A stretch of 64,000 nucleotides of DNA from Eledone cirrhosa (taxonomy: Eukaryota), in the NCBI GenBank assembly GCA_964016885.1, contig OZ024752.1, forward strand, positions 29,078,001 through 29,142,000, written 5' to 3'. The position numbers and the translations under genes were made by a program. Below the pieces are notes generated by a model. It saw only the letters and a list, made by a program, of their open reading frames with translations. It searched no databases and was not told the origin of the DNA. Shown here piece after piece: positions 6,195 to 63,603 of the stretch. The number at the start of each line of letters is the position of its first letter. Positions within the stretch are counted from its first letter, which is position 1.

Positions 6195-6509
6195 TTACGT
6201 ACAGTTTATCAACATCACCTTTCTTATGAAACATACTGTAGGTAAACGGAAAAAATGAAACGAAATTTCATTTCCCACTCTTAGTACGGCTGTTACTTAA
6301 ATATAAGTATGTACACGTACATACATATATGTATACAGACGTACAGTAGTATGTATATATATATACATACATGCACACATATATATATGTACGTATGGAT
6401 TCACCGAACATTTATTATAATGTTCGGTGTGTTTGTAAACAAACATCCCGTATTAAGCTGTACTGTCTAGAAACCATCGTTGCTCGTTTGTTCAACACTG
6501 ACAAAGGAA

Positions 6510-6550
6510 CGCTGTACTAGTTTCAAGCTTATTAGCTATCATCAGCAACG
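6510..6550 (-). ncRNA. minimal type I hammerhead ribozyme motif
   Basis: Minus strand: cgttg CTGATGA tagc taataa gctt GAAA ctag TA cagcg. Confidence 0.7.
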
Positions 6551-6641
6551 TATACCTTCTTGCCAGATTGTTGAACATATATACTTACCTTAATATGCAT
6601 AAGGTAAGTATATACGTTCAACAATCTGGCAGGAAGGTATA

Positions 6642-6682
6642 CGTTGCTGACGATAGCTAATAAGCTTGAAACTAGTACAGCG
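6642..6682 (+). ncRNA. minimal type I hammerhead ribozyme motif
   Basis: cgttg CTGACGA tagc taataa gctt GAAA ctag TA cagcg; helix I cgttg/cagcg, palindromic helix III ACTAGT, predicted GUA cleavage after 6677. Confidence 0.7.
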
Positions 6683-6999
6683 TTCCTTTGTCAGTGTTGA
6701 ACAAACGAGCAACGATGGTTGCTAGACACTGTACGGCTTAATACGGGATGTTTGTTTACAAACACACCGAGCATTATAATAAATGTTCGGTGAATCCATA
6801 CGTACATATATATATGTGTGCATGAATGTATATATATATATACATACTACTGTACGTCTGTATACATATATGTATGTACGTGTACATACTTATATACTGT
6901 AGGTAGTTGTTGATTCCTTTGTCTTTCTACCCAGTTCCAACTGTCTGATAGGTATTGAAGATTTCTCAAGAGTGTCAGTTACAAAGCTTAGCTAGATGT

Positions 7000-9074: not shown

Positions 9075-12000
9075 GTAAAACGTAATTTCAATTTGGAATT
9101 TCTTCTGTGTCTAAGTAGTTTCTATTATTCATTAATCTATACATATTAGTACTATATATTAATGATGTATAATAGTAATGACATATAATAATATAATAGT
9201 TATTCTTTTTGTAATGTACTCTCATTATTATAATTGTGCCAAAAGTAGAAATCATCATCATCATCATTTTACGTCCGCTTTTCCCTGCTTGCAAGGGTGG
9301 GACGGGTCTTATTCAGCCCAGCATCTCTCCACTTGTCACGGTCCTCCGTTATCTCCACCGTGAGCTTCAGCGATCTGAGGTCTGTTCTCACCACCTACGC
9401 TCATGTTTTTCGTGGTCTACCTCTACCACGTCTCCCTTCAACTGGCATTTCCTGGCACTTCTTCACCCATCGGTCATCCTCCATGCGCATCACATGTCCA
9501 TACCACCGCAGTCTCCTCTCTTGCACACTACATTCTATCCCTCTCAGACACAGTTTCTCTCTCAACACATCCATGCTGGGTTGTTCACGCACATTGACAT
9601 TGCACATCCAACAGCATGCTTACCTCATTTCTCTCCAGCCGTTGCATATCCTCTGCAGTTGCTGCCCAAGTCTCACTATCATGCAGCATCGCGCTCCTCA
9701 CACAGGCATCATATAACCGGCCTTTCGTACGCAGGGAGAAACCCTTCTTTGTCAGCAGAGGAAGCAGCTCCCTAAACTTCTTCCAATCCGTCCTTATTCT
9801 AGATACTATGGCCTCGGAACACTCCCCTCCCATGTTAATCTGATCTCCTAGGTACCGGAAGCTATCCACCACTTCTATAGCACCCGCCTGCATTTGAAAA
9901 ATGTGTCTATCAATGCGACTTCTACTGTACATCTACTGCATACGTATTTCTCCCTACCTGTTAGTTTGTCTGCTATCCCACTACATCTCTTGTGTATCAA
10001 GGATCTGCATTGTGTGCATTTTATAGAATTTATGCCAGTTCCTTTTCTGCATATCGAACATGGCCATTTCCCTGACGGAATCAGAGTTTTATTCTCTTTT
10101 CTACTCATCAAAACTTTTGTCATAGCTAGGTTCACTCTCAGTCCTCTTGCTTCCAACTGCTGTTTCCATAGCCAGAATTTATTCTCTAGCTCCTCTACTG
10201 ATTCTGCTATAAGAACCAGATCGTCAGCATAGAGAAGTTCCTATGGACAGCCAGTCTTAAACTCCTCTGTTATGGCTTGGAGGACTATAATGAACAAGAG
10301 CAGGCTGAGGACCGAACCCTGATGTACTCCTACTTGTATCTGGAATTCCTCACTAAACTCCATTCCTACTCTCACTTTACTGACAGCACCTCTGTACAAA
10401 GTTTGCAGTCCTCACAAGCTATTCCTCAACACCTAGTTTCCTTAGGGACCACCAGATGACAGACCGGGGTACCCTATCAAAGGCCTTCTCTAGGTCAACA
10501 AAGGCTAAGTATAGTGGCTTATTTTTCTCTAAGAACCTCTCTTGTAATTGTCTCACCAAGAAGAGGGCATCTGTTGTACTTTTCCCAGGCACAAAACCAA
10601 ACTGCATCTCATCTAGTTTGACCCTTTCTCTAATTAGTTGTACTAATATCCTTTCTGCCACTTTCATAACCTGATCCATCAGTTTTATACCCCTATAATT
10701 GCTCCTCTCCAGAGCATCCCCTTTACCTTTGTAGTAATTTATGAGAATACTGCTGCACCAGTCTTTGGGTATGACACCACCATATATAGCCTGATTGATG
10801 ATGCGTGCAACCAGTTTAGTGCCTACATCCCCTGATGCCTTCAGCATCTCAGCAACTATCCCCGATGGTCCAGCAGCCTTACCATTTTTCATTTCCTTAA
10901 TCGCCTCTCGGACCCTATATTCGTCAATCTCAATAGCTGGTCCCTCTGTTGGATCTACTGAGGGTAATTTCTCTCTCTCCCATTCGTTCTCCACATTCAT
11001 CAGTCTCTCATAATGACATTTCCAGGCCTCCTTTTTCTGATCATTCGTGACACTAAGTACACCGGCATCATTCCGGATACATTTATCTCCAAGATCATCC
11101 TGATTTACATTGACACACTGCCTTGCAATGTGGAACACTGCACGCCTCTGATCTTCCCGTCGCAGAACATTGGCAAACCTCCTACTCTCTGCCTCCCTGC
11201 GTGCTAAGTACACCTGACGTCTAGCTTCTCTCTTAGTGGCTGTATATCCTTCTCTACTCCCACCTTTTTTTCAAGCCTTCCATGCTAGTCTTTTGTCTCT
11301 AATGGCCCTATCTACTGTGCTGTTCCACCACCAGGTCATTCTCTGTCTGGTTGGAACTCTGTCAAAGCCACAAGTTTCATCAGTAGCCTGCAGTAAGTTG
11401 TCACGTAAGAAATTCCAGTTATTATCTATGTCATACAACTCTAAATCGTCTTCTTTTTTATTATACACATCTTGAAGGGCTTTCCTAAATTTGTATTTTA
11501 GTGAAAGGTCTTTTAGCTTCCAGACCTTTCTTCTCCACACCTTCCTGTATGTCTCATTCCATCTTTTTCTTACTGAGATATCACTAACGACTAACCTATG
11601 CTGTGGGGTACATTCTTCCCCAGGGTATACCTTGGTATTTGACACCATCTGCCTGTCCCGCTGCCTAACTAGTAAGAAAATAATTATTATAATTTCTATC
11701 TATCTTCACACTTCTCATTAAAGTGAAATGCTCAACCTACACACATTCAAAATGAACAACAAAGGTCATTGGCACTCTTCCCCTCTGACTAATTAAATAA
11801 AAATAATTGCTCTAATGATTTATTTCTGCCTAGTGTTGGCACTGAAGTGTGTTACTGGTAAAGGCACTTAACTCTAAATGGTCTCCTAATGTACCAATGT
11901 AGTAGGACTGTTAAAATATCCAATATATTGAAGTACATTGTTCTTCTTCTTCCACTTCTTCCTGAGAGGATCATTGGGGCAGAGCCCTCAAACACTCCTT

Positions 12001-15000: not shown

Positions 15001-18000
15001 ATTCCTAGAGCAAATATTGGATGTGGTCCATAAAAATGCTTATAAACATCTAAATACAATGTGAAAATTAAAAAAGAGGGAGCGTCTTATTCGAAGAGGT
15101 GTCCAATAGGCCAGCAAATACGGTATATTGTTATTAATAATTTAGCATTATATATTGCCATGAAAAAAGCCATAAAAAAAAATCGCGGAAGATATTTATG
15201 GTTTGTTAGGTTCTAACTAAGCCGCGAATAACTGGGGCCACGAATGTTGGAAGTACACTGTATTGAAATAATATCCAGTTAAAGCATATCTTTCATTTGT
15301 TTAATATTTTGAAAACAGCACTAAACATAAATTGTTATAAACTTTTCGGGTTTAGAGAAAAGGATGTGTGAGGGTGAGAGAAAGCAAGTATGTGTGTCAG
15401 GGAGAAAGCATGTATGTAACTAAGTACCTATTGGTGTTTGTGTGTGTTCAAGAAAATTTGTGAGAGTTCATGTGTATAGATGAGACTATCAGTGGGGTTG
15501 AATCTCAAATGATATAGTAGTAAAGTGAACTTGTTGACAACCCAACCATACCTGCATCTGTTAATAAGTACGTTGTAATAGTTAAAGTTTTGCTACAATA
15601 ACAGATTTGAACCTGTGGCATGATAGCAGAAATTCTGTAATGTCTATTTTTAGATATGTGACTTTATATAGTTGATGGAAGCTATATAGAAGAAGGTAGG
15701 AAGACTTGGGATGAGGTGATAAAAGCTGACCTTGCACAATTGCACCTCTCCAAGGCAATGACACAGGATTGAGATCTTTCGCGTTATACAATAATACAGA
15801 AGACCCGTCTTCCCATGTGCACTGGTTGAAGCATACATCTAGTATGCATCATTCTATTTCTATCATCCCCTCCCCCTTTCCAAACATGTCCCATGCCGTA
15901 ACACTCCACCTACGTCCTAACACCCCATCCTTCAACCACGTCCTTACTATGCCCCACCCCAGCTCCAGCCTCACAGTCCACACTGTAAAGTGGTCATGTT
16001 GGTATCATGACAAAAAGCAACCAGTCCACACTGTAAAGTGGTCATATTGGTGACATGATAAAAAGCACTCAGCGCGCATCATAAAGTGGTTGTGTTGGTG
16101 TCATAACAAAAAGCACCCAGTCCACACTGAAAATGTGGTTGGCGTTAGGAAGGGCATCCAGTCATAGAAACCAAACCAGAAACAGTTCTGTATGAGCAAG
16201 ACATGGTCATCTTTTCTGACTTGTCTTACAACGGGACAACTTGTCTAACCCATGTTGGAAAATGGATGTTAAACAGCGATGATGATGATGATGATTGTAT
16301 AATTGCACATCCTTCCCTGACTTCTTAACCCTTTAGCATTTAAATCAGCCGTATATAGCCAGAATTCTCTCACCTCTTTCTGTTTAAACTAGCTATAACC
16401 AGCTGCTCATACTTATGTTAAGGGATTGTTCTCAAAATAAATAATATCAAAATTTCATAAATTTGATATTATGTGAGATAATTATGTAAGATAAAGTCTT
16501 TACCACAAAAATACAATAGCATATATAGAATAATGCAAAGGTTAAAAGATTAATCTTGAAGTTATGTTGGTGTGTATATATATTTTTAATGCCACTTTTC
16601 TATGTAGTATACTCCTAAAATAATTTTTCTTATTTTCTTTTTCAGGAAGCCATGAAAATGATGGGACTACAAAACTGGACCATTTGGATAGGATGGTTCA
16701 TAAAATATTTCATCTTTATATTAATATCAATTTCCACAATGACATTGTTTCTATGTATAAAAGTTGGAGATAAAGGAAGTGTTGTGGGTTATACAAATCC
16801 ATTAATACTTTTTATCTTCTTTCTTGCTTATACTTTTGCAACCATCACTTTCTGCTTTTTACTGAGTTCATTTTTTTCTAAAGGTAAGCTTTTCAAAAAT
16901 ATAACTAAAAGTATTAACCCTTTCATGACCACATTTCTAATGAAATACACTCTATTTTAATTAAGTAATGAAGACTTTTCAGGGATTTACTAAAATTATT
17001 AATTATTTCATTAATAAGATAGTAACTTAATGTAAGGTTCTTATACAAAATTATGTTGAAAGATATTAATTTAAATTGGAAACCTTTAAAATGAGTGACC
17101 CTATCTGATAGAACCTGAGGTGTGTTTGAGTGAGTTGCTAACTAAGCTAGTAACTTAATGTAAGGTTCTTATATAAAATTATGTTGGAAGATTTTAATTT
17201 AAATTAGAAGCCTTTAAAATTGGTGGCTTTATTTCTTAGAACCAGAGCTGTTTCATTGGCTCAGTATGTCTGGTTGTAAACTATGAGGGTCGGATGAAAA
17301 GTTCATAGGCTGACTATGGAGGAGTGATGCTAGTACTGTGAAATCTTGCATGCATTAATTTCAACTCTTCTTATTAATAACTGCATTGTTTCTTTCTAGG
17401 GACTATGTTGAAAAATAAACCTCATTTGGTCATTCCATAAGAATATCTTGGTCAGCCTATGAACTTTTCAGTCTATTAAATTTTCAGCTAACCATCATAG
17501 TAGCATGAGATCTGCACTTTGAGCATCAAAAACACTGAAAAATTGTTTATACAAGTATAAAAAGCTCCCAGTCCATGCTGTAAAGTGGTTAGCATTAGGA
17601 AAGACATCCAGATGTAGAAAACCAAGCCCAAAATGGAGCATAAGAGCAAGAACGTAGTTACCTGATTTGTGTAGACATATAACATGATAGCCCATCTAAC
17701 CCATGCAAGCCTGGAAAATAGACATTTGATGGTGATGATGATAATAATTTAGATAAAGTCTCAGATATATTGATTATTTATTAAGCTTTCGAGGGTTGCT
17801 GTAAAATAGCTGAATTCTACTAGTGTTATCACAAATGAGAGTCAGAATCTCAACAGTTTACATTTGCAGTTTTTGGTTTTTTATATGCTATAACACAATT
17901 TTCAATCCTTAATTCTGTATTTTTGTTTCACTTATTTTCTTTTGAATAATGTAATGATACAATAATTTTCTATGTAACAAAGAAAGTTTTTTTTTCTTTT

Positions 18001-18236
18001 TTCCAGCCAACACAGGAGCTGTTGCTGGTGGTGCTTTATTCTTTCTTTCTTATATTCCATACACATTCCTTGCTAGTCGATATGGTACTTTAAGTTGGGC
18101 TGCTAAAATTGGAGTTTGTTTAATATCCAATATTGCACTAGCTTTAGGTGCCCAGGTCCTTGGAACATTTGAAGGTCAAGGTAAAATTATACATTTACAT
18201 ATTATTTACTATACATATATATGATTTCCTTGTTAC

Positions 18237-18271
<35 letters not shown>

Positions 18272-21200
18272 GTTTAACGTCCATCTTCCATGCTTGCATG
18301 TAGTACAATAAAGCAATGCAGATATCGGATAAGTAGCACTCTACAGTTTGTAGGACTGGAGTATAAATAATATAAGATCAAAAGATGGTTAAAAGAGTTC
18401 CATGTATTTTATTATGCGCATTTCAAAAACAAATATCATCATGAGATGACATTTGCGTTTTCGTCAGATAAAATAGGAATACATGATATGAAGGTTAAAA
18501 AACACTTGTGAATAGTGGAGTTTTAAATCAACATATGAAAAGTAATTTAAGATTGATGTATGATATTGGGGAAAAAAAAGTGAGGGGGGGGGTGGAAAGG
18601 GTGAAAAAGAGGAGGAGATGAGAGTAAAGAATGGTGGGGGAGGAGTATAATAAGGAAGGAGGAGAGATGGGTGATAGAAAGAGAGAGATAGCCTTTATAA
18701 CTGAGAAAAAATATATATTGTTTCACAGAGAGGTTAAAAAGCCGTTGGAAGATAATATATAATTTAAAAGAATTTGAAAATAAAAAGTTGATGAAGAGAA
18801 AAAAAAGTTAAGAATAATATTAAATTAAGGTTTGTATGCTGCCAATCCACTGCCCCAATAATAATCACAAATATCAAACGGAATGTTTTTCTTTATTAGA
18901 TACTAGCAGTAAAGCCCGGCGTTGCTTGGGGTCGCTCAGTAGCTGTGTTAAAGTTACAATGTTAAGTTTCTTTCTTGGCTTAAAAACTGTAGTGTCTACT
19001 GTGCAGACTTGCATGTGGTGTTTTTGATTAATATTCCCTCAACCAACAATATGCCTTATGAAGTTAAGAAAACATAACGATAACCCCAATGGTATAACAA
19101 AAGAGGATGCTGGGGATAGAAACTGCACTGGTTATTTATTAACAAAGATCGAAAATGTAAACACTGCAACGCAGAGAAAAACATTAGCGTAACCAAATTA
19201 TCAGTTATGTCTGTCTGCACGCCTATATCACCTCTCTGCACGACTGTCTGTCTGCACGCCTATATCACCTCTCTGCACGACTGTCTGTCTGCACGCCTAT
19301 ATCACCTCTCTGCACGACTGTCTGTCTGCACGCGTATATCACCTCTCTGCACGACTGTCTGTCTGCACGACTGTCTGTCTGCACGCCTAACGACGAAATA
19401 TTTGCTTGTTTTACGTAGTCTTTAAATAGACTTGTTTTCAAGTAAAAATATTGTTTTAAAATGCTTTTAAATGGAAATGAAGCAAAACGGAAGCTTAGTG
19501 TTCGGACTGATGAATTTTGCAGGTCAATATTTTGCTGGCTCGACAACTGTTAATGTCATTTTAAACGCTGAGAAAGCCAGCGTAATTTTTTACGTAAGAC
19601 GCTCAATGTAAACAGAACAAAGGGAAATAACTGATAACTTACGCTCAAAAATCGATACATTATATTCGATTTCGTCACATGGGGCGGGTCAATTTGAAAT
19701 ATTTTTTTTCCGATGTCTTCGCTAGGGCTCAATGTACAAGTATAACAATTTCGGTGCAATTCCGTGAGAGATTCTAAGAGGAGATCATCATCATCATCAT
19801 CATCAACGTTTAACGTCCGTGTTCCACGCTTGCATGGGTTTGGACGGGGGTAGTCCCACTTGAGGCAAGAGTGATTGTCTTGCTCGCATAGGACTGTCTG
19901 GCAGGTTTTCTACAGTTGGATGCCCTTCCTAACACCAACCACATTTACAGTGTGGGTCTGGGAGGTTTTTACCGTGTTGCCTACACGGCCACATTACAGC
20001 GTGGACTGTGTGTTTTTTTGTCGTGACACCTACACGATCTCATTTGTTTCGGCCTCGATGGCACGGCACCAACATAACTTTACATAGAACGGGGTGGTGT
20101 GGATGGGGTGGGGGTGGTGGTGGTGGGACGGGGTGTATTTTGTTAGAGATGCCTACTGGCTGGAGTAGGTTTTACTATATATTTAGGTAAGGCGGGTCTT
20201 CTCTGTTACTGAGTACCGCCAAAGGTCTCGGTCCAGTGACATTGTCTTGGAGAGGTGTAAGTGTGTGATGTCGGAGTTTATCAGCTCGTCCCAGGTTTTT
20301 CTAGGTCTGCCTATTCCGTGACTACCGTCTATCTTTATTGCCCTGCACTTTGTTATACAGCTATCGACTTTCATGCGCATCACGTGTCCATACCAACGTA
20401 GCCTTCTCTCGAGTAAACAACATCTGATCCCTCTTATCTCTAATTTTTTCCTTAGTTCGTTTATGCTTTGCCGTTCACGTATATTACTGTTACACATCCA
20501 GCGGAGCATGCAAGCTTCGTTCCTCTCTAGTCTGCGTATATCCTCTGCACACAATGCCCAGGTCTCACTGCCATGCAGCATTGCTGTTCGTATGCAGGCA
20601 TCGTACAACCTGCCTTTCATAAAAATCGATAGACAGACAGACAACCACAGTTTTATATATATAGATGAACTTTGAGCAACTGATTATAAAATTAACTGTT
20701 TTCCAAAGGAGCAAAAAGAGAAGCTAACCTAATTCATGGTTTTATCAGTGTTTTTACTGATTAGATCAACTTCCACTTTAGTATGATTAATAAGTCTACT
20801 TTAAGTTTAATAACAAAATGAAATTGTAATATTTGAACATAATTTATGTGTTTTACAAAGCTAGAAGATCAAATTTATTCTAATGATTAACTTGTTAACA
20901 ATTTGTTTTTGTTCGTACATTTATGTTATGTAAAAGATAAAATTATAATTTTTTGACAAAAATCATTAATTACTGACAAAAATGATTAATTTTCCGTCAA
21001 AAATCATAAATTTTCCGACTAAAATTACTTATTTTCCAACAAAAATCACTAATTTTCCAACAAAAATAATTTTCTGACAAAAATTACTAAATTTTCTAAC
21101 CCTTTTTTTTTGGGGGGGGGGGGGTTACCTCCATGCACCCCCAACAATACACTACTGGTCAGTCAGAAGGTACAAAAATATTTCATAAAATTTATGTTTT

Positions 21201-24200
21201 TCAATTTTCCAGTAATATTTTTGAATCATTTAAAATATAAAATTGCTGTAGATTAGTATTCCCCAAGTTGTTCAGACATGTATAGAAAAATAAACACACA
21301 AACATGAGACAGACAGACACATACATACAAACATGTGACACACACATACACACAAACACATGACAGAAACATACACACAAACACATGACAGAAACATACA
21401 CACAAACACATGACAGAAACATACACACAAACACATGACAGACACATACACACAAACACATGACAGAAACATACACACAAACACATGACAGAAACATACA
21501 CACAAACATGTGACACACACATACACACAAACACATGACAGAAACATACACAAACATGTGACACACACATACACACAAACACATGACAGAAACATACACA
21601 CAAACATGTGACACACACATACACACAAACACATGACAGAAACATATACACAAACATGTGACACACACATACACACAAACAGAAGAGAGACACATACGCA
21701 TAAACTAGGACAAACTCATACACAGAAACAAAGACAAACACATATACACAAAGACAGACACATATCATCATCATCATCATCATTACCGTTTTACGTCCGT
21801 TCTTTCCTTTGGAATAATGTTAATTTTATAATCAGTTGCTCAAAGTTCATACCTAATAAAGAAAAACATTCCGTTTGATATTTGTGATTATTATTGGGGC
21901 AGTGGATTGGCAGTGGATTGGTAGAACGTCGGACACCATGCTTCACACCAGTTTGTTATATCTCTTTACGTTCTGAGTTCAAATCCCATCGAAGTTAGCT
22001 TTGCCTTTCATCCTTACAGAGGTCGATAAAATAAAGTACCAGTAACCACCCTCCCCTAAAATTGTTGGCCTTGTGCCTAAATCAGAAACCTTTATTGTTT
22101 GATAGGAAACACTCGCACTAAAAAAAAAATAATGATTTAACCATGCATTGATATTTATTTTTACTTTGGTATTTTTACTTTTTAGGTATTGGTGTTCAAT
22201 GGAATAACATAAGCCAAGGTTCTTCAGTTGACGATGACTTTGCATTTCTTCATATCATCCTGATGTTAATTTTGGACACTATTATTTATAGCCTTCTTAC
22301 ATGGTATATTGAAGCAGTATTTCCAGGAGAGTATGGTGTACCACAGAAATGGTACTTCCCTTTTATGGTAAATCATTGCTTAATCATCTATTATTTTATC
22401 TTTTAACACTAAATAATTCTCTGATTTCTTTCCGATAATATTTTATGAATCTTTACTAGTAGATAGATTGTCATGAATATTTGCAATATTAAAGTAACCC
22501 TTTAGTATTTAAACTGGATGTATCTGGCCAGAATTCTCTCACCTCTTTATGTTCAAACCAGCTGTAACTGTCCACTCATATTGATGTTAAGGTATTGTTC
22601 TCAAAATAAATGATATCAAAATCTCATAGCTTCAAAATTATGTGAGGTAAAGTCTTTACCATGAAACTACAATGATAAATATAGAGTAATGTAAATGCTA
22701 AAGGGTTAATGTGATGCAGTCATCATGCTGTGTGTTGTACTTTGTAAAAATGCCTTGCTAATATGGTTTTATTTTGTATAGTTTGTGGAGTTAAAAAATC
22801 GTTTTAAAAGATGTGTTAGAATATAAGGATACACAAAGCTAGTTATTTTTAATTACAAGAATGTTTATTATATCGTCCATATTATATATAAATTAGTTTA
22901 CAGAAAATTTTCCAAAAATAAAAAATAATTGTAACTTTTAATAATGTCAACAAATTTGTTACTGTTGGACTAACAGACAATCAAGCAAACCTTTTGGTCT
23001 TTGATTCTTATAATCCCTTTATTATTTGGAGAAAGTATTTCGACTGTGTGAGGTAACATACAGTCAGCAAATTCTGAAGAGCAGATGGCAGTGTTGTAAG
23101 AGCATAACAAAGAATGAACATAGATAATAGACAGTGGTTGAAAGTAATTGGTGATGGTACAGAGATAAACTCTTAATGAATACAATATATCAACTGTTTT
23201 TAATTATTGCTTAACTCTTTAGCATTTAAACCAGCCATATTTGGCCAGAATTCTTTCACCTCTTTCTCTTCAAACCGACTGCAACCAGCTGCTCATATTG
23301 ATGTTAAGGTATTGTTCTCAAAATAAATAATATCAAAATCTCATAGATTCGATATTATGTGAAATAATTATGTGAGGTAAAGCCTTTACCATGAAAATAC
23401 AATAGTATATATAGAGAAATGTAAATACTAAAAGGTTAAAATAGATTGTACTATACATTAAAAAAAGCTCATCTGTCCAGTCTTATCCTTGGTTCCATTG
23501 GTGTAAAGCAACTGATAGTACAACACACTGTCTCTGGACAAGATGCTAGTTCATTGCTGGGTTAACTCCTAGCTACTGCTGTTATTCATTTGCAGCTGAG
23601 TTACTGAAGCAACATGAAATGAAGTGTTTTGCTCAAGAATACAATGTACCACCCACTACAGGAATTGAACTGATGACATGATTGTAAGTCCAACACCCTA
23701 ACCACTAAGCCAAACATCTCCCTTATTGTCTTTGGAGAAATACAAAGGTTACAGATTCCCACTTCCTTTTCTTGTGAACCAAAAGCTTCATTTTTAATGA
23801 ATATATCATTATTTTCATTATTCCCTGCTATTTTTCTGAAAGATACTTTTTGAAATCATCATTATCATTTTTTTTTTTCATCCATTTTTCCACACTTGCA
23901 TGGGTTGGACGGGTCCTATTCAGCACAGTATCTCTTCACTTGCTGCATTACTTTGTCATTTCCTCTGTGAGTCTCAGCGATTTGAGATCAGCTCTCAACA
24001 CCTTTGTCTAAGTCTTTCTTGGTCTTCCTCTATGGCAGCTTCCTTCCACTGGGGTTTCCTGTCACTTTTTCACCCAGTAGATGAAATGTAAAAGTATAAT
24101 CCTCTTTTTTTTCTTTTTTCTTTTTCAGAAATCTTATTGGTGTGGAACTACTCAAGTTAATATCACCTCTGGTTCTCTAGGTCCTGGAAACCCCGAAGAA

Positions 24201-27200: not shown

Positions 27201-30200
27201 TTGTAGTAGATGGTTTCCAGTCCAGAACAGACTGCAACTACAAATAAAAAAATTGTTAGTTTGCTTTGTAACAATAGCATATTCAAGTTTTCGGATAAAT
27301 CAATTTACTTTAACTTTGACCTCATTTCAATGGGACCCTTGAGCTTCATGGAGTCTAGCTAACTCTTTGACGTCAGGCTGGATATTTGTAAGATGTAGCC
27401 AGAGATCCACATGTAATTACATTGTAGCAGTTGCGAGCCTTACTGTGAAGTCTGGAAACAGCACCAAACCTCCCCGCGACTAAGTATGAGCTTGGAAAAG
27501 GCAGAGCAAATCTCTTAGCCTCTGCATGTAGGAGTGGAAATCGACGCTGCATATCTTCTTGCATCCAAAAAAGGGGTTCACCTATTTTGGGAAATCTAAT
27601 TTTGATCATGTCATGTGCTTGAAGTTCAATGAATTCTTCCTGAAGGGATCTGCTATCCACATTTGGATGTCCATCAGCAAAAGGTCGACAAACCATTCTC
27701 TCATGTTGTCTTGTAGCGCACGGAGGTGAGCGGTATAAATTTGGAGTTGGCCATCGCTTGCAATGTTTTAAACATTGGCGACACTAGGAAAATTATAGAA
27801 TTCCCGTCAACAAAGATTACTTTCGATGACATTCAATTTGGCCAGGAATGTTTTCACAGCATTCCTTGCTTTAAGCAAGGTGGTCTTCTTCCCCTGCAAA
27901 GCCATAATAACGCTCAGCGAGGTAGGCGCAGTCTTGCCTCACATCGAGGGTTTTCTTATACAGTTCTGTGTTGCGCCCTCGAAGAAACTCAATGATAGAG
28001 TCAAACAGTTCAAAGAAGTCAGTAAGGCACTTGCCCTTTGAAAGCCACCTCACTTCAGTATGAAGGAGCAACTTGATGAATTCTTTGTCATTATCTTGGC
28101 ACAGTTGCCGGAAAATTCGTTCATTGGGGGAATGGAGTTTGATAAAATTGAAGACATCAATGGCCATCTGCAAGGACTTGCTCAGTGGCTCGCTGAATTT
28201 CTTTGCAGCCAAGTGTTGTTGATGAATGACACTATGAACAGCAAATGCAGTTAGATTTTCTCTCTTCAGAAAAATGACGAAACCCTTATGTTAGCCGACC
28301 ATTGCTCTTGCGCGTCTGTACCACATGATACAATGTGTGTTGTATGTGGTCCTAGATGTATGTATTACCTGCCTGTGTATTGTATGTGGTCCTAGATGTA
28401 TGTATTACCTGCCTGTGTGTTGTATGTAGTCCTAGATGTATGTATTACCTGCTTATGTATTGCATGTCGTCCCAGCTGTATTTATTATCTGCTTGTGTGT
28501 TGTATGTGGTCCTAGATGTATGTATTATCTGATTATGTGTTGTATGTGGTCCTAAATGTGTGTGCTACCTGATTATGTGTTGTATGTGGTCTTAGATGTG
28601 TGTATTACCTGCTTATGTGTTGTATGTAGTCCTAGATGTGTGTGCTGCCCGCTACTGTGTTTTTTTTTTGTTTTTTTTTTGTAATATTATTTATACAATA
28701 GGAAATAAAATAGATCTACATAGTGTTAACTCGTTACAGTTGAGTCAAAAATTTCAGACATGAAATACATTGTTATCGGTGAAGGAAAGACAAGATTCTA
28801 ACTGGCTGCGCTCAAAGTGCCCTTGACTCAGTTGACTGTGGGTGTTTTCCATTTTTAGGATCTCAGTTACCAGTTAATGTCTAGATACGCCTGCTCACAG
28901 CTGCAGTCAGACCATAGTTATGCTGTCTGCATGCTCATTCAAATGCATTCACACTGACCGTTTCAGCGACATATAAAACTTACCAAAGTAAAGAGCCTTC
29001 CAGCGCTCTTCAAAGCTCCAAACTCCCCCCTGGAGTTCCCCCCCCCCCCCCCCCCCCCGGAGGTGCATATGCCCGCCGTTGAGAACCTTTGCTTTAGACA
29101 ACAGAGGCTTTTGTTTTCTCTATTTGCTTTTCTGTAGTTTTTCATCAAACATAAATATGAAATTTTGCTGAGGACCATTCTAACATACTACACAGCCTGT
29201 ATCACAGTCTGTCATACTGCCTCAACTACACATCACCAAGTCCTCATAGCAGCCAAAATTGAATCTTTTTGGCATACGATCTCACATTCTTTCTCATATC
29301 ATCCATGCTCACTTTAATTACATATATCTGAAAACAAAATATATTTGTTGGAGATTCAGTTCTAATTTTTCACATTTTCCATTTCTATTCCAATAAACTT
29401 GGATTTTGAATCACTTTTTTAACGGCACCATATTTTTAATTGAGTATTGATAGCTGTCATAGCATTTATATTACTCTATATTTACTATTATATTCTCATG
29501 GTAAAGGCTTTATCTCACATAATTACCTCACATAATATTGAATCTATGAGATTTTGATTTTATTTATTTTGAGAACAATACCTTAACATCAGTATGAGCA
29601 GCCGGTTACAGCTGGTTTGAAAAGAAAGGGGCGAGAGAATTCTTGCCAGATATGGCCAGTTTAAATGCTAAAGGGTTACAGTATGGCATTACACATTTCA
29701 GTAGAATTTGTTGTTTTAATTATTATGTAGTTGCAAATCTATTTGTTCTACTGTTTTATACTGAAATACCTCATCAAATATTAGTTTTAATTATCCAACC
29801 TTTACATATTGTTGGTTTTTACTAGATTCCACTCATCACTTTTAGAGATAGTACAATGACCAAAAGCATTAAAACATTTTCTTACTTTTAATTTCACACA
29901 GGTCTCTTTCCTCCTTCAAGTGGAACTGCTATTGTGAATGGCTATGATATCCGTAATGACATGAAAAATGTCCGGTCAAGTTTGGGTATATGTCCACAAC
30001 ATGATGTCTTATTTGAGATGTTAACAGTAGAAGAGCATTTACAGTTCTTTGCAAGGGTAAAAATGTTATTAGTTTATTCTATACAAAAATGATAAAACTA
30101 TGTTTATTATAATATTATAGGGAGGTGGATTGGCAGTATCAGTAGAGGGTCAGACGCCATGTTTTGGAGCATAGAGTTACGTCCCTTTGCGGTCTGAGTT

Positions 30201-34000: not shown

Positions 34001-37000
34001 AACGTTTTGTTTAACAGTTCTTAACTTCTACTGTTTTAACGGTTTGCTCCATCATTTGTCTGTGTGTGAGTAGTAGTGCTGGGAAGAGTATGCAACCATA
34101 TTCCATATAAATATTAAATACTAATGTTTGAGCTGTACATTGTCATTACTGAAAGTAAATGAATTTCTCCATAGATTGTTATCCTTGATGAGCCATCCTC
34201 AGGATTGGACCCTAATGCACGGCGACAAGTTTGGTCTGTTCTTGAAAAACACCGAATGGGTCGGACAATGCTTCTTACAACTCACTTCATGGATGAAGCA
34301 GACTACCTGGGTGATAGGATTGCTATTATTTCTGATGGTGTTCTCAAGTGCTCTGGTAGTTCTTTGTTTTTAAAATCGAAATATGGTAAGTTATTATTTG
34401 TTCTCTCCTCTCCACCTCATTCCTCCATCCATCTGAATTTAATACATGCACTCACATATATGCATTCACATATATGCATCTAAATATATGCACACATATA
34501 TACATATCTAAATATATGCACTCACATATATGCATTCACATATATGCATCTAAATATATGCACACATATATACATATCTAAATATATGCACTCACATATA
34601 TGCATTCACATATATGCATCTAAATATATGCACACATATATACATATCTAAATATATGCACTCACATATATGCATTCACATATATGCATCTAAATATATG
34701 CACACATATATACATATCTAAATATATGCACTCACATATATGCATTCACATATATGCATCTAAATATATGCACACATATATACATATCTAAATATATGCA
34801 CTCACATATATGCATTCACATATATGCATCTAAATATATGCACAAATATATACATATCTAAATATATGCACTCACATATATGCATCTAAATACAGGAATT
34901 CACATATATGCATCTAAATATATGCATTCACATATAAATATAATAGTATATATAGAGTAATGTAAATGCTAAAGGGTTAAATGTCTGCCTTCAAATTATC
35001 AAATTTCAGAACCATTTAACCAATGCTAATAAGTGAAGGCATGTGGCTTAGTGGTTAGAGCGTTGGGCTTGCAATCGGTAGGTTGCGAGTTTGATCTCGG
35101 ACCAGGTGATGCATTGTGTCCTTGAGCAAGACACTTTGTTTCACATTTCTCCAGTTTACTCAGCTGTAGGAATGACTTGTGATGTCACTGGTGCCAAGCT
35201 GTATTGGCCATTGCCTTTCTCTTAGACAACATAAGTGGTGTGAATGTTTATGCAGGTGTGGCTAGCCACATATAGTCTAGCCATTAGGAAAAGCAAAATG
35301 AATGCTTCACCTTCGAAAGAGGGATGACTGAAGGAGAATAAGAAATAAAAACTAATGTAAAATGATCTGTAAACTAATGTCAAATTCTGTTTCTAGGTGC
35401 TGGCTATCATTTGGTGATAGTGAAAACTCAAGACTGTAATGTGGTCAGTGTGTCAAAGTTTCTTAAGTCTTTCATCCCAGAAGCAACAATGGAAAGCAAT
35501 GTTGGGTCTGAACTGTCTTACCTTTTACCTCATGAAAGCAGCTGTCATTTTGAAAATCTTTTCAATCAAATAGAGAGGGAACACACTGCTTTAGGAATAT
35601 CAAATTATGGTGTTTCTGTGACAACAATGGAAGAAGTATTTCTGAAGTTAGTTTATTTTAAATGATTATATTTTTGCTATATATACTTTAAGGCGGTGAA
35701 CTGGCAGAGTCATTAGATAATCAGATAGAATGCTTTGCAGTAGTCATTCCGGCTCTCAGCTCTCTCAGTTCAAATCCTGCCGAGATCAACTTTGCTTTTC
35801 ATCCATTCAAGGTCGATAAAAAAAAAAGTACCAGTCTAGTACTGGGGTTGATTCTTCCTCTATAAATCTTTCTCACTTTCTATCCTTCTCTGGAAGAAAT
35901 CTGCTGTATTCAGACCTGGAGAAAAGATGGGCTCTGCCAGGTTTTAAAAATGCCCTAGAAATGCTGTATGTCAATACAGTGCTCCATATGACTCCATCAT
36001 GAATTATGTTTGTGCCTATTTGCATTTTGTATTGAATGCTTGAGAAATTCTTTTAAAAGAAACCACTACGAAATTATGAAATTGAATGCTTGAGAAATTC
36101 TTTTAAAAGAAACCACTACGAAATTATGAAATTAAAATGGTTTTGTCTGCATCCACCTATAATCCACAATCAATGTTCTCAGAACTTTTCTGGATTTTTA
36201 AGTGACATTAATGGAATCCTGCTACACATAAACATTTAAAACCACATATAAAAAACAAAAAAAGCTATCTGTATTGACATTCTCCAGCTTTTGGCCTACA
36301 AACCTACTGTCTCGTCTCTCTTTCTCTACCTTTTCTATCTTACTACAGTGGTTTCTGCTCTTTGGGGCTGGCTAGTTTCATGCCACCAACATTCAGCCAC
36401 TCCCGATTCTCTTGTTTCTCCTATCAATTTCAATGAATGAGTTATCAGTTTCATGATATAAGAAAATTGCACTAGATTACATTTTTTATTTAGATTTTTT
36501 TTCTGTATTTTCCTCAATGAAATTTATTTATTTTATATTCATATTCTATACATTTTATAACTTTTTCATATTCCAACTCTAAACTAACTTGATCAGAGTG
36601 AGTGAAAACAAAAGCAACAAAGCAAATAATGACTCCGACACTTACACAAATTTTGATGAAGACCCTTTCTCTGCCTCAGTTCCTGTCAGTAGCCCATACG
36701 AAACATCTTTTGAACCCTCGGGTAAGTGTGCTTTATATCAATCTATGTAGCAAAATAGTGGAAAGGAGTTATAGTTTGCTTTCTTATTAATTATTTTGTA
36801 TTTGGTTTGATATAAGTATAGTAATTCTGCCTGCAATGTAGCTAGTTTCAGGTATTAATAAAGATGTTTGCTTATTGGAGACATGATTGTAAAAATGTGT
36901 TGGTGTATTGACAAAAAGTGCCCAGTTTAAACTGTAAGGTGGTTGTGCTGGTGTCACGACAGAAAGTGCCCAGTCTACACTGTTAAGTGGTCATGCAGGT

Positions 37001-43800: not shown

Positions 43801-46800
43801 AGATAATCCAACGAGGATACTATCACTTACCACACTGGCAACTAACGACCACTGATTCTACCACCCCGCTAAAGTGGCGACTACTCTACAACTAATACTG
43901 CTAAAGTGGTGACCGACGTAAGAATATCACGCAGCCCTTCTTATTCATTCAGTTTAACTTTTATTGCCACGTCGCAACTTGCGAAAATCCAGAATATTCC
44001 TTTTAAGATTTTTGAAAAATTAGCAGTATTTCAAAAACTTTTTCGCCACGAAAAAAATTTCAAGATGGCTACCGACATGTCATGGCTACGCTTGACAACA
44101 ACAATGACAGCAGCGGCGACAGCGTTGTTTAACCACTGACCAATACAGGGAACAGTGAGTTGCAGCTTCATAACCTTACCGACGCCAACCACCACACATC
44201 GGAAATTTCAAAACGGCTTGTAACTTTACCGACGCAACCACCATACCTTCTGTCTCGTTACCACAGGGACGCGAGAAATTGAGACAGTAGTTTTCTCACC
44301 ATTATGGCGTCAGACGTGACTGCCATATTTGGTGACTCCTACTCTACAGAAGATTCTTTGACTTTGCTTTAACAAGAAGCAACACAACCGTGTGGCGGGA
44401 CGGGAAAATGGCCACGAAATCTCACAAAAACACCATACATCTAACCCCTAACGGCATTAACAAACTTCTTTTTCAGTTTTCAGATAGAACTAGTGTCTGT
44501 ACACTGGTGATGTGTGAACTATTTTACTTTGAAAAACTTTGAACTTATTGAGCAATTTCTCTGCTCCCCTAGATTGACTTTGAATTATCAGTTTGTTACA
44601 TTCACATATTTCTTTGTAGAATGCATTTACTTGTTTTGTGCTCTTTTGCTATTTGCTTGCTCATGGTTTTTGTTCATTCACATTCTTTGCTGTTTTACAT
44701 GCCTGCATATGCACACATTTTTTTTATCACACACCAACATGTTCTTGGTATATGTTCTTCAAACGTAATATTCTGCGAGTCCCTTTTCACCTGGTTGAGA
44801 TGCTGTCACATGCTAGCAGCTCACAGAGCTTAATCCACTGGATTCAAACAGGCACCGCAACACGAGAATACATTGCAGCTGAACTCAAACAGCTTCGCAT
44901 CTCGTTGCACACTGATCGTCCATGACGGCCATCCGTCTTGTTGTTTTTGCCCGACTCGCTGGGAAAGCAACAAATTGAACTGGACTTGTTAGCATTTCGG
45001 CCACTTCTGTAGATTCGCCCGAATTATGGAATTTACACTGCAACCCACCTACAGATTAAACTTGCCTTTTGTTCTTTACAAAGCAACCAGCCATTTTTTC
45101 CTGGCTCCACAGCACATTCGACAATACATCTGGGGGCCAGCACTGGTAAACTACCATAATAGCTTCGTTCACAGCTACTGGTACAACGCTTACCATTAAC
45201 ATTTAATGCAAGAACAGCAACTTCGCCCATGTCAGACTTTATCCGTTTTTTGTTAGACCCTTGGCGGTCACGTATAAACAACAAAACAACTGGTCATTTG
45301 ACACAGCGGCTCAACACGGCCCGTAGCGCCTCATTTTTTGTTCTTGCATGCAACCTTCTGCTCAATTATTTTTTTCACTGATGTGCTCTTTCAGCATTTG
45401 TTCTTGCTGATTTAATATGTGAGTCCTTGGTTTCTTCGTTATCGATTTTCGGCTGAAAATCTGGTTGGAGGTGATGTAGTGACCTACATTCCGCGGGCTC
45501 ACATACATTCTCTGTGCGTGATTTGGCTCAGTTCAGCCAATCAGCGCCAGTAGAAGAGGATGTATCCCTACGCGCCCTGAGGAAGAAATTCACCGCGAAG
45601 ATTTGAAGAATCTCGCTCTTGTACCAGAAACTTTGAGCCAGCAACACGCATAATGTAACAGTGAGATATTGCACCACTAGCCTCGCCGGCTTAACGCGCA
45701 ATGGCACATTCCATTTGGTAACCTCTTTGTATCTGTAACTTCAACCATATAAATAAACAAACATTTCATCTCTAATTACTGCGGTTGAAGTCGTTGTTAT
45801 GTTACTCGTGTCTCCATGACATCTTTAATCCATGCTGCTGGAATTGGCGACCTGACGAAAGGAATATTGTAAATAGATGGTAAATAGATCGAGGGACCTT
45901 CCCTCACGTCTATGTCAACAAGATGATCCAACGAGAGCAACTATCCCCGCCGGTCTGGCGGCCTTACCATTTTTCATTTCCTTAATTGCCTCTTGGACCC
46001 TATATTCATCAATCTCAATAGCTGGTCCCTCTGTCGAGTCTACAGGGGGTAATTTCTCTCTCCCATTCGTTCTCCACATTCATCAGTCTCTCATAATGAC
46101 ATTTCCAGGCCTCCTTTTTCTGATCATTCGTGACATTAAGTACACCAACATCATTCCAGACACACTTATCTCCAACAGTATCCTGATTTGCACTGACACA
46201 CTGCATTGATTCAAATATATATATATATATATATATATAAAATTTAATATAGAAATACCTTCTACAGGACTAGAACTGTTTCATTTGATATAAACCATCA
46301 GGCTTTCCTGATGATTTCTTTCGAATGAAACAGTTCTAGTCCTGTAGAAGCCATTTCTATATTAAATTTTGTACATACTCTACTAATGTATTGAGTACTT
46401 CACTTACTGTTGTTACCCCTGATTGAACCCGGGACTCATCATCATCATCATTTTGAATTAATATTCTACTATAGATAGAGTTTAGAAAGATACTCTCTTG
46501 GGGTGATTTGGGTTAATTATTTATTGATGGATGTATAAGATTAGAAATACTCATACAATTTCCATTTATTACATTTGTATTAAATAAATTTTAACTGATT
46601 GATGTATTTTTCTTTTTCACGTAAATCCTGATTGGGTCGTAGGGGCACTTTTATTGACATATGGCATTTCTTGGGCATTTTTTAAACCTGGCAGAGCCCA
46701 ATCCTCTCCAGGCCTGAATACAGCAGATTTCATCCAGAGAAAGATAGAAAATGTGAGAGAGGAAGTGAGAAAGAGATATAGAGGAAGAATCTATCTCAGT

Positions 46801-49800: not shown

Positions 49801-52800
49801 CTAATGGGGACACAGCCTCAGAGGTGGCACGATGGCATTGGCCAGCAAATCTTACTCTCCTTTTACATACAACAACATACATACAATAACAGATATGCAT
49901 GGGAGGCCGGCATATATTTCTTTCAAAGTCAGATGTCACCAGCTTATGTTCTGAATGCATCGAAGTAGACCAGTGTAGGTTCCATCAAGGCACTTTTGAT
50001 GTTTGGATGAAAGTGTCCATGTTTCACTTCCATATAGTAAAATTGGTTGAATTGTTCTTCATAATCCCTCTTAATATGCTTTTTTGCTTCAATAAAATCT
50101 CTTTATGCCTCAATAATATTTCATAATATTCTCTCAGAATAGCAAATATAAGAGAATATCTTGTACAACACTGATGAGTTTTACAAGCTGACTTTGGAAT
50201 GAAAATTGATTAGACAGAAACTGCTGAAGCCTATTGTGTTTTTATATATATTATATTATATTATATTATATTATATAGATATATACATATATAGATATAG
50301 AACATCTTATACAAAATCACTTAATGAAGCCTTCTAGCTTTAGGTTGCTTAACTAAGGCTCTATGCCTAAGGAAAAATATTTGTGAAGTTTTCTTGGTTT
50401 AGATTACTTTACTAGGATCTACCCATCAGTGATTTTGTATAAGATGTTCATTTATGTATATGCTTCTCTGAATTAGATATATTTTAGCAATCTTTTCATT
50501 GCGATGTTATGTATATTGGTGTCTGTATATATATATGTAGAAGTTATATTTAATTTGTTGGGATTCCACCAAGCTTAAAAGTTTATAACTGACATAAAGC
50601 ACTCAACAAATTACTGGAGTAAATAGTCAATATATTAATAAATGGAAACTATATTTAGAAAACCATAATTATTTTATTATATATATTTCAAGGACAACCA
50701 AGGCATTCTTGGTGCGCTTTCATCAGATAAAATACAACATTTGTTTTATAAATATTGACATAACCGTGGAAAAAACAACCTTGACAGTTGAAATAATTAT
50801 GGTTTTATAAATATAGTTTCCATTTCTTAATATATTGTATATATATATATATATATCGAGCCAGCCGACTGCTCCATATGCAAATAAGGCTTATCAGCCC
50901 ATGTACATAGGCATGAAAACTATCTTTTTGCCTACATTGGATTCCAGCAGGGGGAGGAAGTATTGTCTTGATAATGACCATAGTCAGAAACAGTAGGCTG
51001 TTGGCAGATTACCCAGTCCTGCTTCCGCTAGAATCCACCTAATGGCATTAGCCATCAGCTTCCAAAATTCTTAGCTAAAAGGCTTTCAAATGTTTATTCG
51101 TAAACATATTGTATATCGTTAGCTATACAAATACACACCTATCTATCTATCTCTCTTTTTGTCTGACGTGTGAAACATCGCCGGTAAGTTTTTTGTTAAT
51201 TTCTATGCAAAAAAACCGATCTAATTGTTTGGAAAAATACAACACTTTGTAGATTAACCTCGAAGCTGAATTGTCAGCTGGGTGGTAATCCCATTTTTCG
51301 CCCCTGTAGGGGCGAAAATTTTATTTTAAAAATTTGCTTTAAAATATCAGATTTTACAAAGTAAAAAACTTGAGCAACACTAGAACGCTGGAGAACGTTA
51401 ATAGAGAAAAGAGAGAGAAAGAGGCAGATATTAACGTTATATCTGCTTCTACTACTATGGACGTTGCCATAGATACAACTGTCACAAAAGAAAAAAATAT
51501 ATCAACATTTGAAAATTTTAAAATTTCTACCGCCGAAGCGGAGAAAAATGACAATAACACACAGGAAAACACAGCAAAAAAACCCATTGACATACACACA
51601 TGAAAAAGACATCAACAACTCTACAGATACATCTACACATAAAGTTTCCAACAACGATAACATCATCATCAACAACAACACCACACAAAAAAAGAAAATG
51701 TCTTTCGCTGACACAGTGAACAAGAAACAAGATTTTATAAATCTTGATATCTCCAACGCAAGAGATATGCTCCAGCAAGGGAGAAAATTTGTAACTTTCG
51801 AAGAAAGAGGTGGGTTTAGAATTAACTCACCCCTTGAAATAAAGGAAGACACAAACCGCCGATCAGTCACTTTTAGGACTGTGTCAAATTCGTCAAGAAA
51901 GCCAACATTTGTTAATCAAGCAGATATAGAAGATTCTTTCAAGGAAATTCTAGCAAATGTCGATTTTCTTCAGCGAGGAAAACAGTACGGAAGTGTTTCC
52001 GTACTGTTTAAAAGCGAGGCACTCGCCCCAAAAAACTCTGTGACACCAATAGTGTCAAAAGCATACACCTTTTTCCCTACATACATGGGGAAAAGGACAC
52101 AAAAAATAAAAATAAAAAACATACCTCCAAGCATTAACATCTGGTGGATCTTGGCTGGCTTCGTAGAGCCAGAAACAGACATAATACTTTCGATACGAAA
52201 ATCTATTCGACAAAGGTGGGCGGGCACAGATTTGGAGATTCTGTTGCAAATGAAACCGGAGAGAATCTCCAAAATACCCGAAAGAGTCGTTATTGATAAT
52301 AACAACAAAATAAACATTTCGGTAGAAGGACGAAAATTTCATTGCTTTCGCTGTGGTAGCACATCTCACCTAAAAGCCTCTTGTCCACAAACACACAACA
52401 ACAACATCATAAAAAAAACGCTATTACCAACACCAACACCAAAACAACCACCACCACCACAAGTACAGAGACAGACGAAACAAGCAACCACACCAAAGCA
52501 AACAGACACTCAACCAACAACAACAGAAAAAACAGAGACAACACCCCTGAAGAACACATCCCCACTCCATCCCACTCCATCAAACACTACCACAAACACA
52601 CATACCAAAACACCACCACCACCACACAACATACCCTTACCCCACACACCTGACGATGATTATTCATCGACGGATGAAGCTGCTTCTCCTTCTTTAAGTG
52701 AAGAAGAGGGAGAACCGCGGAAATCTAAAAAACAAAAAAAGAGACACCACAAAACCCCCAAAACTCCAATCACCAACACCAACACACAACCACAGACACA

Positions 52801-55800: not shown

Positions 55801-57015
55801 AGGCTCCGCTGGTGAGGAGATCCGTCTGCTGTCAGCACCCTTCCAACGGAGGGCTGGGAATGCCGTGGCTGATGATGCGCAAACATGCGCTGAGGCTGCG
55901 GCATCTCCAGGTATTCTTCACCGACCCCCAACCGGTGTGGGCACCGTTTGTGAGACAGGCTTTCCCACAGCTCGTCTCGCTAACGGAGCTGCAGTCCTGG
56001 GTGAAGAAAAGACCGAAAACGATGGGCGCCTGGCACATTGAATGCGCTCAGGCGCTCACAGTCCTCTGGCAAGCGGGCGCAGCAATCAGTGGAGACTCCA
56101 CTTCGACATTCTATAGAGGGATTGTACGTTACAAGGGCGACGACGTGCTCAGAGAGACTCTGGCCGTCGAAGACGATGAGCTCACCAGTCTGTTTGGTAG
56201 GACTTTCCGCCCGGGACCTATGGACAACTTCCAGAGGACTCTGGCCTGGCAGTGCTACCGAGGAGCTCTACCGGTTCGTGACAAGATCTACAGGCACGGA
56301 CGCCCTGGCAGGGATCCTTCCAAGAGGACGTGTCCAAGATGTGCGCAGGACATTGAAACAGTTCTGCACACAATTGTACACTGCCCAGGCGTAAGTAACC
56401 TGTGGAACTATGCAGAACAACTGCTGTCGCGTATGGGACAAATCCAGTTGACTGCCGAGTCCATAGTAAGGATCAAACCGCCAGACTCTTTCAAAAACGA
56501 AAGAGAGGCAGTTTTCCTCTGTACGGTGGCTATGGTGAAAGAAGTTATATGGTGGACGACGTTGAGAGGACTGAGGACAGATACCTTTCTCTCCGGACAA
56601 CAATTGATTCCCTTCTTTAAGTATCACTTTAGAAGGAGAATCAGGGTGGAGAGAGAGGCACTGCACCCCAGTAAATTTACTGAAAGGTGGGTGAATGAAG
56701 CGAAAATGGCCCGAGTGATTGGGCCTTCTCTGTTTATAAGCCTGTAGGTTGAGGAAGAGAGCAAAAGGAAGAAAGGAGCACTTGCACAACACGCTCCTGG
56801 AGTTAAGGGTTGTTCTATCGACGGGGTATTAAACAACCCATTTGTGGCGTCTCCCCCCTATTGGGGATTTCGATTGTTGAAATTGTTTGTTTTTATATTT
56901 TTTACATGACTGTATGTAAAATCCCCGGCATGTTTTTGTATTGTCCTCTTTTCTTGTTGCGCCCTTGTGGCTAATAAAGAAATCTATCTATCTTTCTCTT
57001 TCTTTCTCTCTCTCG

Positions 57016-63090: not shown

Positions 63091-63469
63091 TATATATATG
63101 AAAAAATGGGGAGAAGAATACTGCAGGTTGCACATGGATAACATGTTATAAAATGAGTCCCTCATCAGTGATTTGCCAACGATCATAGATATTTGCATTG
63201 CATTAAAAATCATATACCTCACGTTGGTGCAATAATAACTAAATTAAGTTATTAGGACAATTAAAACGCGTAAAGCGAGTGAGACAAGTAAACAACAAAG
63301 AGGAAAGCTAACCGTAGATAACATATAACAAAGGAATTGTAGTAAGGAACCAGATGGACAATAACGCACCAGAGTACTCAATACTTAGGGTAGTAGAGTG
63401 GGAAATAGGAAAAAGTATGACTCTGACGGCAGAGCTCAAGCCATTTCGAAATAGACGTCATACTTTTTC

Positions 63470-63603
63470 CTATAAACATATATATAAACATATATATATA
63501 AACATCATACTTTTTCCTATAAACATATATATAAACATATATATATAAACATATATATATAAACATATATATATAAACATATATATATAAACATATATAT
63601 ATA

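Follow-up and report, generated by a model that had tools for sequence, protein, structure and literature searches.

The window, i.e., the whole stretch of 64,000 nt from the Eledone cirrhosa contig OZ024752.1 that was analysed, carries exons of an ABCA-type transporter gene on its plus strand. Three of five peptides from these exons match the ABC2_membrane_3 and ABC_tran domains, while the exon beside the insert described here, taken alone, and the following exon gave no domain match. The intron between these last two exons spans 18181–22185 and holds, 118 nt downstream of its start and antisense to the gene, the 3′ stub of a high-copy repeat with a hammerhead motif. The host gene appears to be expressed. 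An 8,703-nt contig of run X4, from whose contigs strand and ends cannot be read, matches only 18005–18183, and there perfectly, which is how a spliced message would look.

On one side the stub meets a (CAT)n-tailed LINE 3′ end, labelled RTE in the first-pass annotation. A longer copy of this LINE joins a reverse transcriptase (RT) ORF at 10422–11270. The repeat breaks off at 18300, where its copy at 19784–19836 continues, and the insert and the LINE tail overlap by 2 letters. This bears out the first-pass annotation in that the repeat is cut off here; that the insert did the cutting is one order of events, and a later deletion fits equally well. The 18300 junction differs from the natural end of the inserted element. 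As the copy lacks the last ≈20 nt and the (TA)n of the family 3′ end, with the 2-letter overlap, the junction may be such a deletion. No target-site duplication could be defined at the insert.

The other end of the insert lies at about 18835–18838, and a different repeat starts at 18839. The 64 nt adjoining the 5′ end of the stub (18839–18902) are 98% identical to 21913–21850 on the opposite strand and cover the upstream flank and the head of a SINE-like repeat. Their read depth is low, and they are thus possibly locally copied filler DNA. A second high-copy repeat, with a Helitron-like start, begins at 18902 (18902–19060), and a tandem array follows at ∼19208–19389.

Table 1. Features of the insert, its surroundings and related stubs in the window.
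Feature	Position	Strand	Basis or remark
Host ABCA-type transporter exon	18007–18180	plus	joins in phase to exon at 22186
(CAT)n-tailed LINE 3′ end, truncated at 18300	18235–18300	minus	repeat comparison within window
5′-truncated 3′ stub of high-copy repeat, likely Penelope-like (stub A)	18299–18838	minus	depth profile, loose ends
Bulged tail hairpin, stub A	18335–18362	minus	+51 from cleavage site, behind TA-rich short end at ∼18362
Type I hammerhead motif	18405–18475	minus	structural scan and folding; predicted cleavage between 18413 and 18412
Helix I 5′ strand	18475–18468	minus	pairs with 18412–18405, perfect 8 bp
Core CUGACGA	18467–18461	minus	N7 at 18463 is the variable position in the family
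Long helix II including loop	18460–18425	minus	strands 18460–18445 and 18440–18425
GAA	18424–18422	minus	core strand between helices II and III
Helix III AUGCGCAU	18421–18414	minus	perfect palindrome; pairing predicted between two molecules
Competing segment for helix I 3′ strand	18478–18485	minus	two letters differ from family majority
Pyrimidine-rich tract (ribozyme strand)	18566–18700	minus	in repeat family; likely 3′ UTR
Tail hairpin, stub D	46377–46399	plus	starts at +31
Sister stub B	50540–50845	minus	core 50726, long helix II; on the 5′ side a short inverted piece next to (TA)n
Tail hairpin, stub B	50620–50598	minus	starts at +58
Tail hairpin, half-hammerhead stub	63399–63373	minus	starts at +26; stub spans 63447–63373

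Direct reading of the sequence and a structural scan both gave a type I hammerhead motif, with CUGANGA, GAAA and UH at a three-way junction and an open helix I. The scan recovered the core, the perfect 8-bp helix I and the palindromic helix III of the first-pass annotation. The proposed helix II of about 16 bp with one mismatch also held up, as 16 positions, of which 13 are Watson-Crick, 2 are G·U and one, at position 4, is a C·U mismatch. The helix I pairs are all A-U, the helix II loop is UCAU and the cleavage triplet is AUA, with A17 at 18413. A detail that was missing before is that an A-U pair closes helix II, against the usual G-C.

As a chance control, the same structural scan was run on both strands of the window and of 200 block-wise dinucleotide shuffles of it. 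Cores with a helix I of at least 5 bp occur twice in the window (18467 and 50726), against a shuffled mean of 0.03 and a maximum of 1, so that 0/200 shuffles reach two. A core with at least 8 bp in both helix I and helix II was found once in the window and in 0/200 shuffles. The motif at 18405–18475 is therefore confirmed as a real hammerhead-ribozyme motif, beyond chance. An Rfam scan of the region gave no hammerhead, neither at the gathering score nor at E ≤ 10, likely because the 36-nt helix II region exceeds the Rfam models.

With relaxed settings the scan gave cores at 6545 (minus), 6647 (plus), 46308 (plus), 50726 (minus) and 18467 (minus). Further CUGANGA matches at 10952–11003, 34151–34202, 37110, 43262, 46041, 50171 and 51923 fail the structural scans. 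Hammerhead pattern scans gave no matches in metagenome contigs (two scans) or viral contigs. Four matches in prokaryote genome contigs were put down to chance; a palindromic helix III was seen in 0/4 and a stable helix II in none.

The insert had been left unexplained in the first-pass annotation, and it can now be described as a stub of a high-copy family with signatures of Penelope-like elements (PLEs). Reads and contigs of 4 of the 13 listed runs (X1, X4, X5, X11) were aligned on 17980–19060 at 80% likeness. Depth jumps at 18299. The summed contig depth in X1, which measures neither copy number nor expression level, is 0.8–2.3 million over 18313–18534 against 8 on the flanking exon, and X11 gives 750–2,700 RAD reads per bin against 4–6. 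Raised depth in X5 shows that the family is also present in a second organism. The X4 run behaves like a cDNA run, without an RNA record, and is rich in the repeat family.

Away from the ribozyme end the depth falls stepwise toward 18835, which fits 5′ truncation of a minus-strand element. In all four runs the loose ends at 18299 continue for ∼20 nt and then become TA-rich (2,673 reads in X11), giving a long family end at ∼+134 nt after the cleavage site. A second TA-flanked end lies at 18362, +51 after the cleavage site (X1 and X5). Among the 10 joints listed, all from short contigs and reads, none is head-to-tail and 7 connect opposite strands, each seen on 2 read starts (X11) or in one contig, with the direction not given; an example is 18376 to 18536 with 79 reads. 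Such joints are consistent with head-to-head inverted pieces. The copy at 18299–18838 has no inverted piece itself, and there is no tandem copy of the insert within the window. This copy has letters other than the family majority at numerous sites.

The purine-rich tract noticed earlier is real (84% purine on the plus strand). Beside it, at 18701–18728, the stub has an imperfect 28-nt palindrome, with a pyrimidine run and AG at its end on the ribozyme strand, which could be a 3′ splice site like that of the Penelope pLTR intron.

Of 206 variants in the family, 40 were listed, and 4 of these fall within the motif, drawn from up to 84 distinct read starts. They are C>U at N7 (18463; 905/1,226 X11 reads), G·U to A-U in helix II (18450; 906/1,325 reads), C-G to U·G in helix II (18448; 599/1,324 reads) and a change in the helix II loop (18444; 510/1,496 reads). 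All four leave the conserved core bases intact, and among the 40 listed variants family A shows one-sided, compatible helix changes only. One loose-end consensus suggests a G10.1 in a subfamily.

Two-sided changes appear when the hammerhead of stub A is compared with that of sister stub B. Helix I is identical in both. In helix II of stub B a G-C pair replaces A-U at position 3, and positions 4–6 keep the C·Y mismatch, the G·U and the C-G pair. Helix III reads AUAUAUAU, which differs from AUGCGCAU and is still a palindrome. There is thus 1 two-sided change in helix II and there are 2 in the dimeric helix III (n = 2 sequences), and we read these compensatory changes as real covariation as far as two sequences can display it. 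Both family 3′ ends are visible within the single insertion of stub B: its inverted piece stops ∼+50–58 after the cleavage site, its direct copy extends to +138.

An inverted piece beside (TA)n is seen in each of the stubs B, C (6301–6895) and D (46232–46377). Stub C is a near-perfect 600-nt palindrome (95%) formed by two head-to-head stubs, bounded on either side by (TA)n and carrying a terminal hairpin; each half has a Hydra-style hammerhead with a palindromic helix III and a 4-bp helix II whose base is a U·U. Stub D (46232–46420) has its hammerhead at 46308 on the plus strand, sense to the host pre-mRNA, and its inverted piece would likely bury this hammerhead in a long hairpin. In a further stub at 63373–63475 (minus) the hammerhead is reduced to its 3′ half (GAAA, helix III and UC), accompanied by an inverted short piece, a TA-rich flank and a tail hairpin.

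The tail hairpin has the general shape ACTC-stem-loop-stem-NN-GAGY-RCT and reads ACTC…2 nt-GAGT-GCT in stub A. The pattern matches 5 times in the window against 0.71 expected, and 0/100 shuffles reach this. Since stubs A, B and D served to define it, only the match at 63399 is independent. Four of the 5 matches sit 26–58 nt after a hammerhead cleavage site; the fifth (27057) has no hammerhead upstream and was rejected as chance. The hairpins alone are not significantly stable (z −2.0 to 0.0).

Visual comparison with five Hydra-clade 3′ ends from the PMC8557442 supplement shows the same hairpin shape in three of them, namely Hydra-2_Amil, Hydra-2_Ajap and Hydra-1_Crog, where it lies 40–50 nt after the cleavage sites. 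The consensus ends of Hydra-1_Obim and Hydra-1_Ajap stop short of the hairpin point. Six 9-letter strings from the tail hairpin gave 8 matches in the supplement, of which only two are at a 3′ end, both in Hydra elements. The main text of PMC8557442 does not use the words "hairpin" or "stem-loop." We regard the tail hairpin as a candidate RT-binding or priming signal.

Folding was analysed by secondary-structure prediction without Mg2+ or tertiary contacts. In the minimal 18405–18475 RNA helix I forms with a predicted probability of 0.5–0.8, and the base of helix II is weakly formed (0.3). The prediction favours the dimer by 13 kcal/mol; the active dimer lies 2.6 kcal/mol higher than the minimum, and helix III pairs between the two molecules with a predicted probability of 0.96. 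Helix III is therefore predicted to form only between two molecules, which is the palindromic, dimer-type helix III of PLE-type hammerheads.

The first-pass annotation recommended 18395–18490 as a good test construct, and here the predictions speak against it. A competing helix (18485–18478 with 18401–18408) wins in this RNA and leaves active helix I at a probability of 0.02, so that the construct is predicted to misfold and to give a false negative. The segment 18485–18478 also captures the 3′ strand of helix I in three longer contexts, and active helix I stays at 0.02–0.05 in the monomer and 0.07 in the dimer across all of these. The family has the other letter at the two minority positions of this segment in 771/1,095 and 580/1,098 X11 reads, and restoring both majority letters, with their co-occurrence on the same molecules assumed, raises active helix I to 0.87. 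The copy at 18405–18475 is likely inert, being solitary, off the strand of the host pre-mRNA and carrying the two letters predicted to trap helix I. Of four triplets compared in a viroid hammerhead, AUA was the slowest (PMC1636495).

Taken together, the insert is very probably a dead, 5′-truncated copy of a (TA)n-targeting Penelope-like retroelement, probably of the Hydra clade, lying antisense in the ABCA intron. The earlier proposal of an antisense PLE 3′ remnant thus stands as regards the 3′-end anatomy and the antisense position, whereas membership in the PLEs is deduced from these features and no PLE ORF is linked to the stub. No RT or GIY-YIG ORF was found in six frames of the insert or by eye among the long ORFs of the window. 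PLEs are described with inverted 5′ pieces, a one-sided tail, (TA)n targeting and a Hydra clade (PMC8557442). The 5′ truncation with head-to-head inverted pieces typical of EN+ PLEs is seen in the depth gradient, the joints and stub B, and the optional one-sided tail appears as two ends (∼+51/+134 in family A, ∼+50–58/+138 in B). A and B have neither the G10.1-C11.1 pair nor an additional base following A9, features that PLE hammerheads show commonly but not universally.

PLE hammerheads have a palindromic helix III and an enlarged helix II, cleave weakly as dimers and are mostly solo motifs (PMC4209133; reviewed in PMC6765202) that stem from truncated PLEs (PMC4209133). Like the metazoan PLE hammerheads of Cervera and De la Pena (2014, PMC4209133), the motif studied here is of type I and has an intact core, a helix III whose short palindrome implies dimer action and a helix II larger than usual, and like most of them it stands alone. 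It differs from them in the length of helix II (16 positions against 6–8 bp) and of helix I (8 bp against 2–5), in the A-U at 10.1-11.1 in place of G-C and in having no extra base after A9. Long helix II regions are also reported for two plant PLE-X motifs (PMC8557442). In cephalopods, Penelope-like families are abundant in Octopus vulgaris (PMC13282606), and 235 hammerheads are annotated in the giant squid (PMC6962438).

The Hydra clade, for which an octopus member is known (PMC8557442), is the likeliest source because the tail hairpin of four stubs in the window recurs, by eye, in three of the five ends compared from that clade, and we consider this origin somewhat better than an even guess. 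As in the Hydra-clade 3′ ends of Craig et al. (2021, PMC8557442), there is (TA)n targeting with a hammerhead close to the 3′ end (a combination that some other clades share and that is not diagnostic), a helix III that is nearly palindromic, a position 17 taken by A or U, a pyrimidine-rich 3′ UTR and the bulged RCTC..GAGY-RCT hairpin 40–50 nt after the cleavage site. The hammerhead sequence differs from that of Hydra-1_Obim and of all listed Hydra motifs, in which helix II has 3–7 bp. The upstream non-coding stretch is also longer than in the Hydra elements compared, at least 370 nt without a coding trace against 3′ UTRs of ∼100–200 nt, with no ORF linked, and the inferred tail of ∼83 nt exceeds the 30–40 bp reported (PMC8557442).

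An origin in another PLE clade (Neptune, Nematis, or a Naiad with a missed long-helix-II ribozyme) would refine the PLE reading, and we regard it as a serious alternative of about one chance in three. Neptune and Naiad elements also target microsatellites, and eight Naiads are annotated as "HHR_half_core" with halves 35–50 nt apart, a spacing that includes the 36 nt found here (PMC8557442). Against this, three octopus Naiad 3′ ends from the supplement do not resemble the insert by eye, the comparison covering Naiad and Hydra ends, and the only two 3′-end matches of the hairpin strings, among the 8 in the supplement, are Hydra elements. Visual comparison led us to reject Naiad_Obim, Naiad_Ovul, Naiad_Omin and Hydra-1_Obim as the same element.

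Improbable, in our estimate, is that the insert is the solo monomer of a non-autonomous PLE derivative or non-LTR retrozyme, i.e., a short, non-coding, self-cleaving unit that may circularise and borrows the PLE enzyme. It shares with animal non-LTR retrozymes (PMC7229834; bioRxiv 10.64898/2026.07.22.740005) the non-coding nature (no coding trace over 540 nt), the low G+C content, the type I hammerhead and a very high copy number, including its heavy presence in the cDNA-like X4, and the same two sources describe type I hammerheads and a derivation from pLTRs. Unlike retrozymes, the family is dispersed and shows graded 5′ truncation, inversions and 3′ ends that enter (TA)n and not another monomer; no head-to-tail joint occurs among the 10 listed, and tandem monomers with a hammerhead are not seen in the window (the reads and contigs being short). 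Retrozyme hammerheads are moreover described as canonical, with loop 1-loop 2 contacts.

That the host gene has co-opted the ribozyme or the insert as a regulatory element is very improbable. The insert does lie 118 nt into an intron of an apparently expressed gene, but the motif is antisense to the pre-mRNA, solitary and predicted to misfold, the copy departs from the family majority as often as any aged copy would, and similar stubs litter the window. From the antisense intronic position no host effect is expected. A chance resemblance within AT-rich DNA, for which the all-A-U helix I, the missing Rfam match and the 4 chance matches of a similar sequence-only pattern in prokaryotes could be cited, is practically discarded, already refuted by the 0/200 shuffles together with the compensatory changes of the sister motif at 50726, and the prokaryote matches have neither a palindromic helix III nor a stable helix II (0/4).

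For the Penelope-like element we prefer as source, published PLE biology suggests how such stubs could arise. Tandem element transcripts would bring two hammerheads together, their palindromic helices III would pair with each other and the RNA would be cut after AUA. The RT/endonuclease of the element would then use an AT-rich nick to prime reverse transcription, starting at either of two sites behind the ribozyme; one start would yield a short end (∼+51), the other a long, tailed end (∼+134). Reverse transcription would usually stop early and leave stubs like the 540-nt copy, often with a head-to-head inverted piece. Two RT start sites are reported to make the PLE tail, and cleavage was found to be protein-assisted and dispensable (PMC11167929).

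In PAc, a Poseidon element of Anolis (Frangieh et al., 2024, PMC11167929), the hammerhead is likewise followed by two 3′ ends, the targets are AT-rich and the tail region holds a stem-loop. Its cleavage needed protein and was itself dispensable in vitro. Unlike here, its ORF starts in helix II and its tail is 30–40 bp long; an ORF starting in helix II was looked for in the insert and not found, and the tail here is ∼83 nt.

PLE 3′-end hammerheads and solo motifs from truncated copies are already well described, and the stub is genomic debris of this known sort. It stands out only by its unusually long helix II, and this and the tail hairpin are the leads it offers.

A survey of PLE hammerhead variants was reportedly made by Lunse et al. 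in 2017. In the literature searched there is nothing on the repeat family, on a 16-bp PLE helix II or on the tail hairpin; Lunse et al. 2017, Repbase and supplements may cover them. Motifs with a long helix II escape both Rfam and the published descriptor, capped at 17 nt (PMC8557442), and hammerhead counts in such genomes may therefore be low; some published "half cores" may be whole ribozymes. The tail hairpin provides a concrete candidate cis-signal for the start of PLE reverse transcription. We tentatively suggest, as a doubtful proposal in its combined form, that a long-stem variant (helix II of 11–16 bp with the kept C·Y at position 4) serves an abundant PLE family and evades Rfam and published descriptors, and that the tail hairpin is a conserved, hitherto undescribed RT-binding or priming signal shared with Hydra-clade elements, which would set the start and the tail length.

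The window holds other mobile elements as well. A near-intact two-ORF LINE with endonuclease, RT and zf-RVT domains lies in an ABCA intron at 51473–56744 (plus) and carries a frameshift near 55100. Decayed transposase-like frames are found at 27376–28290 (minus), with an 80-bp tandem repeat at 28334–28661.
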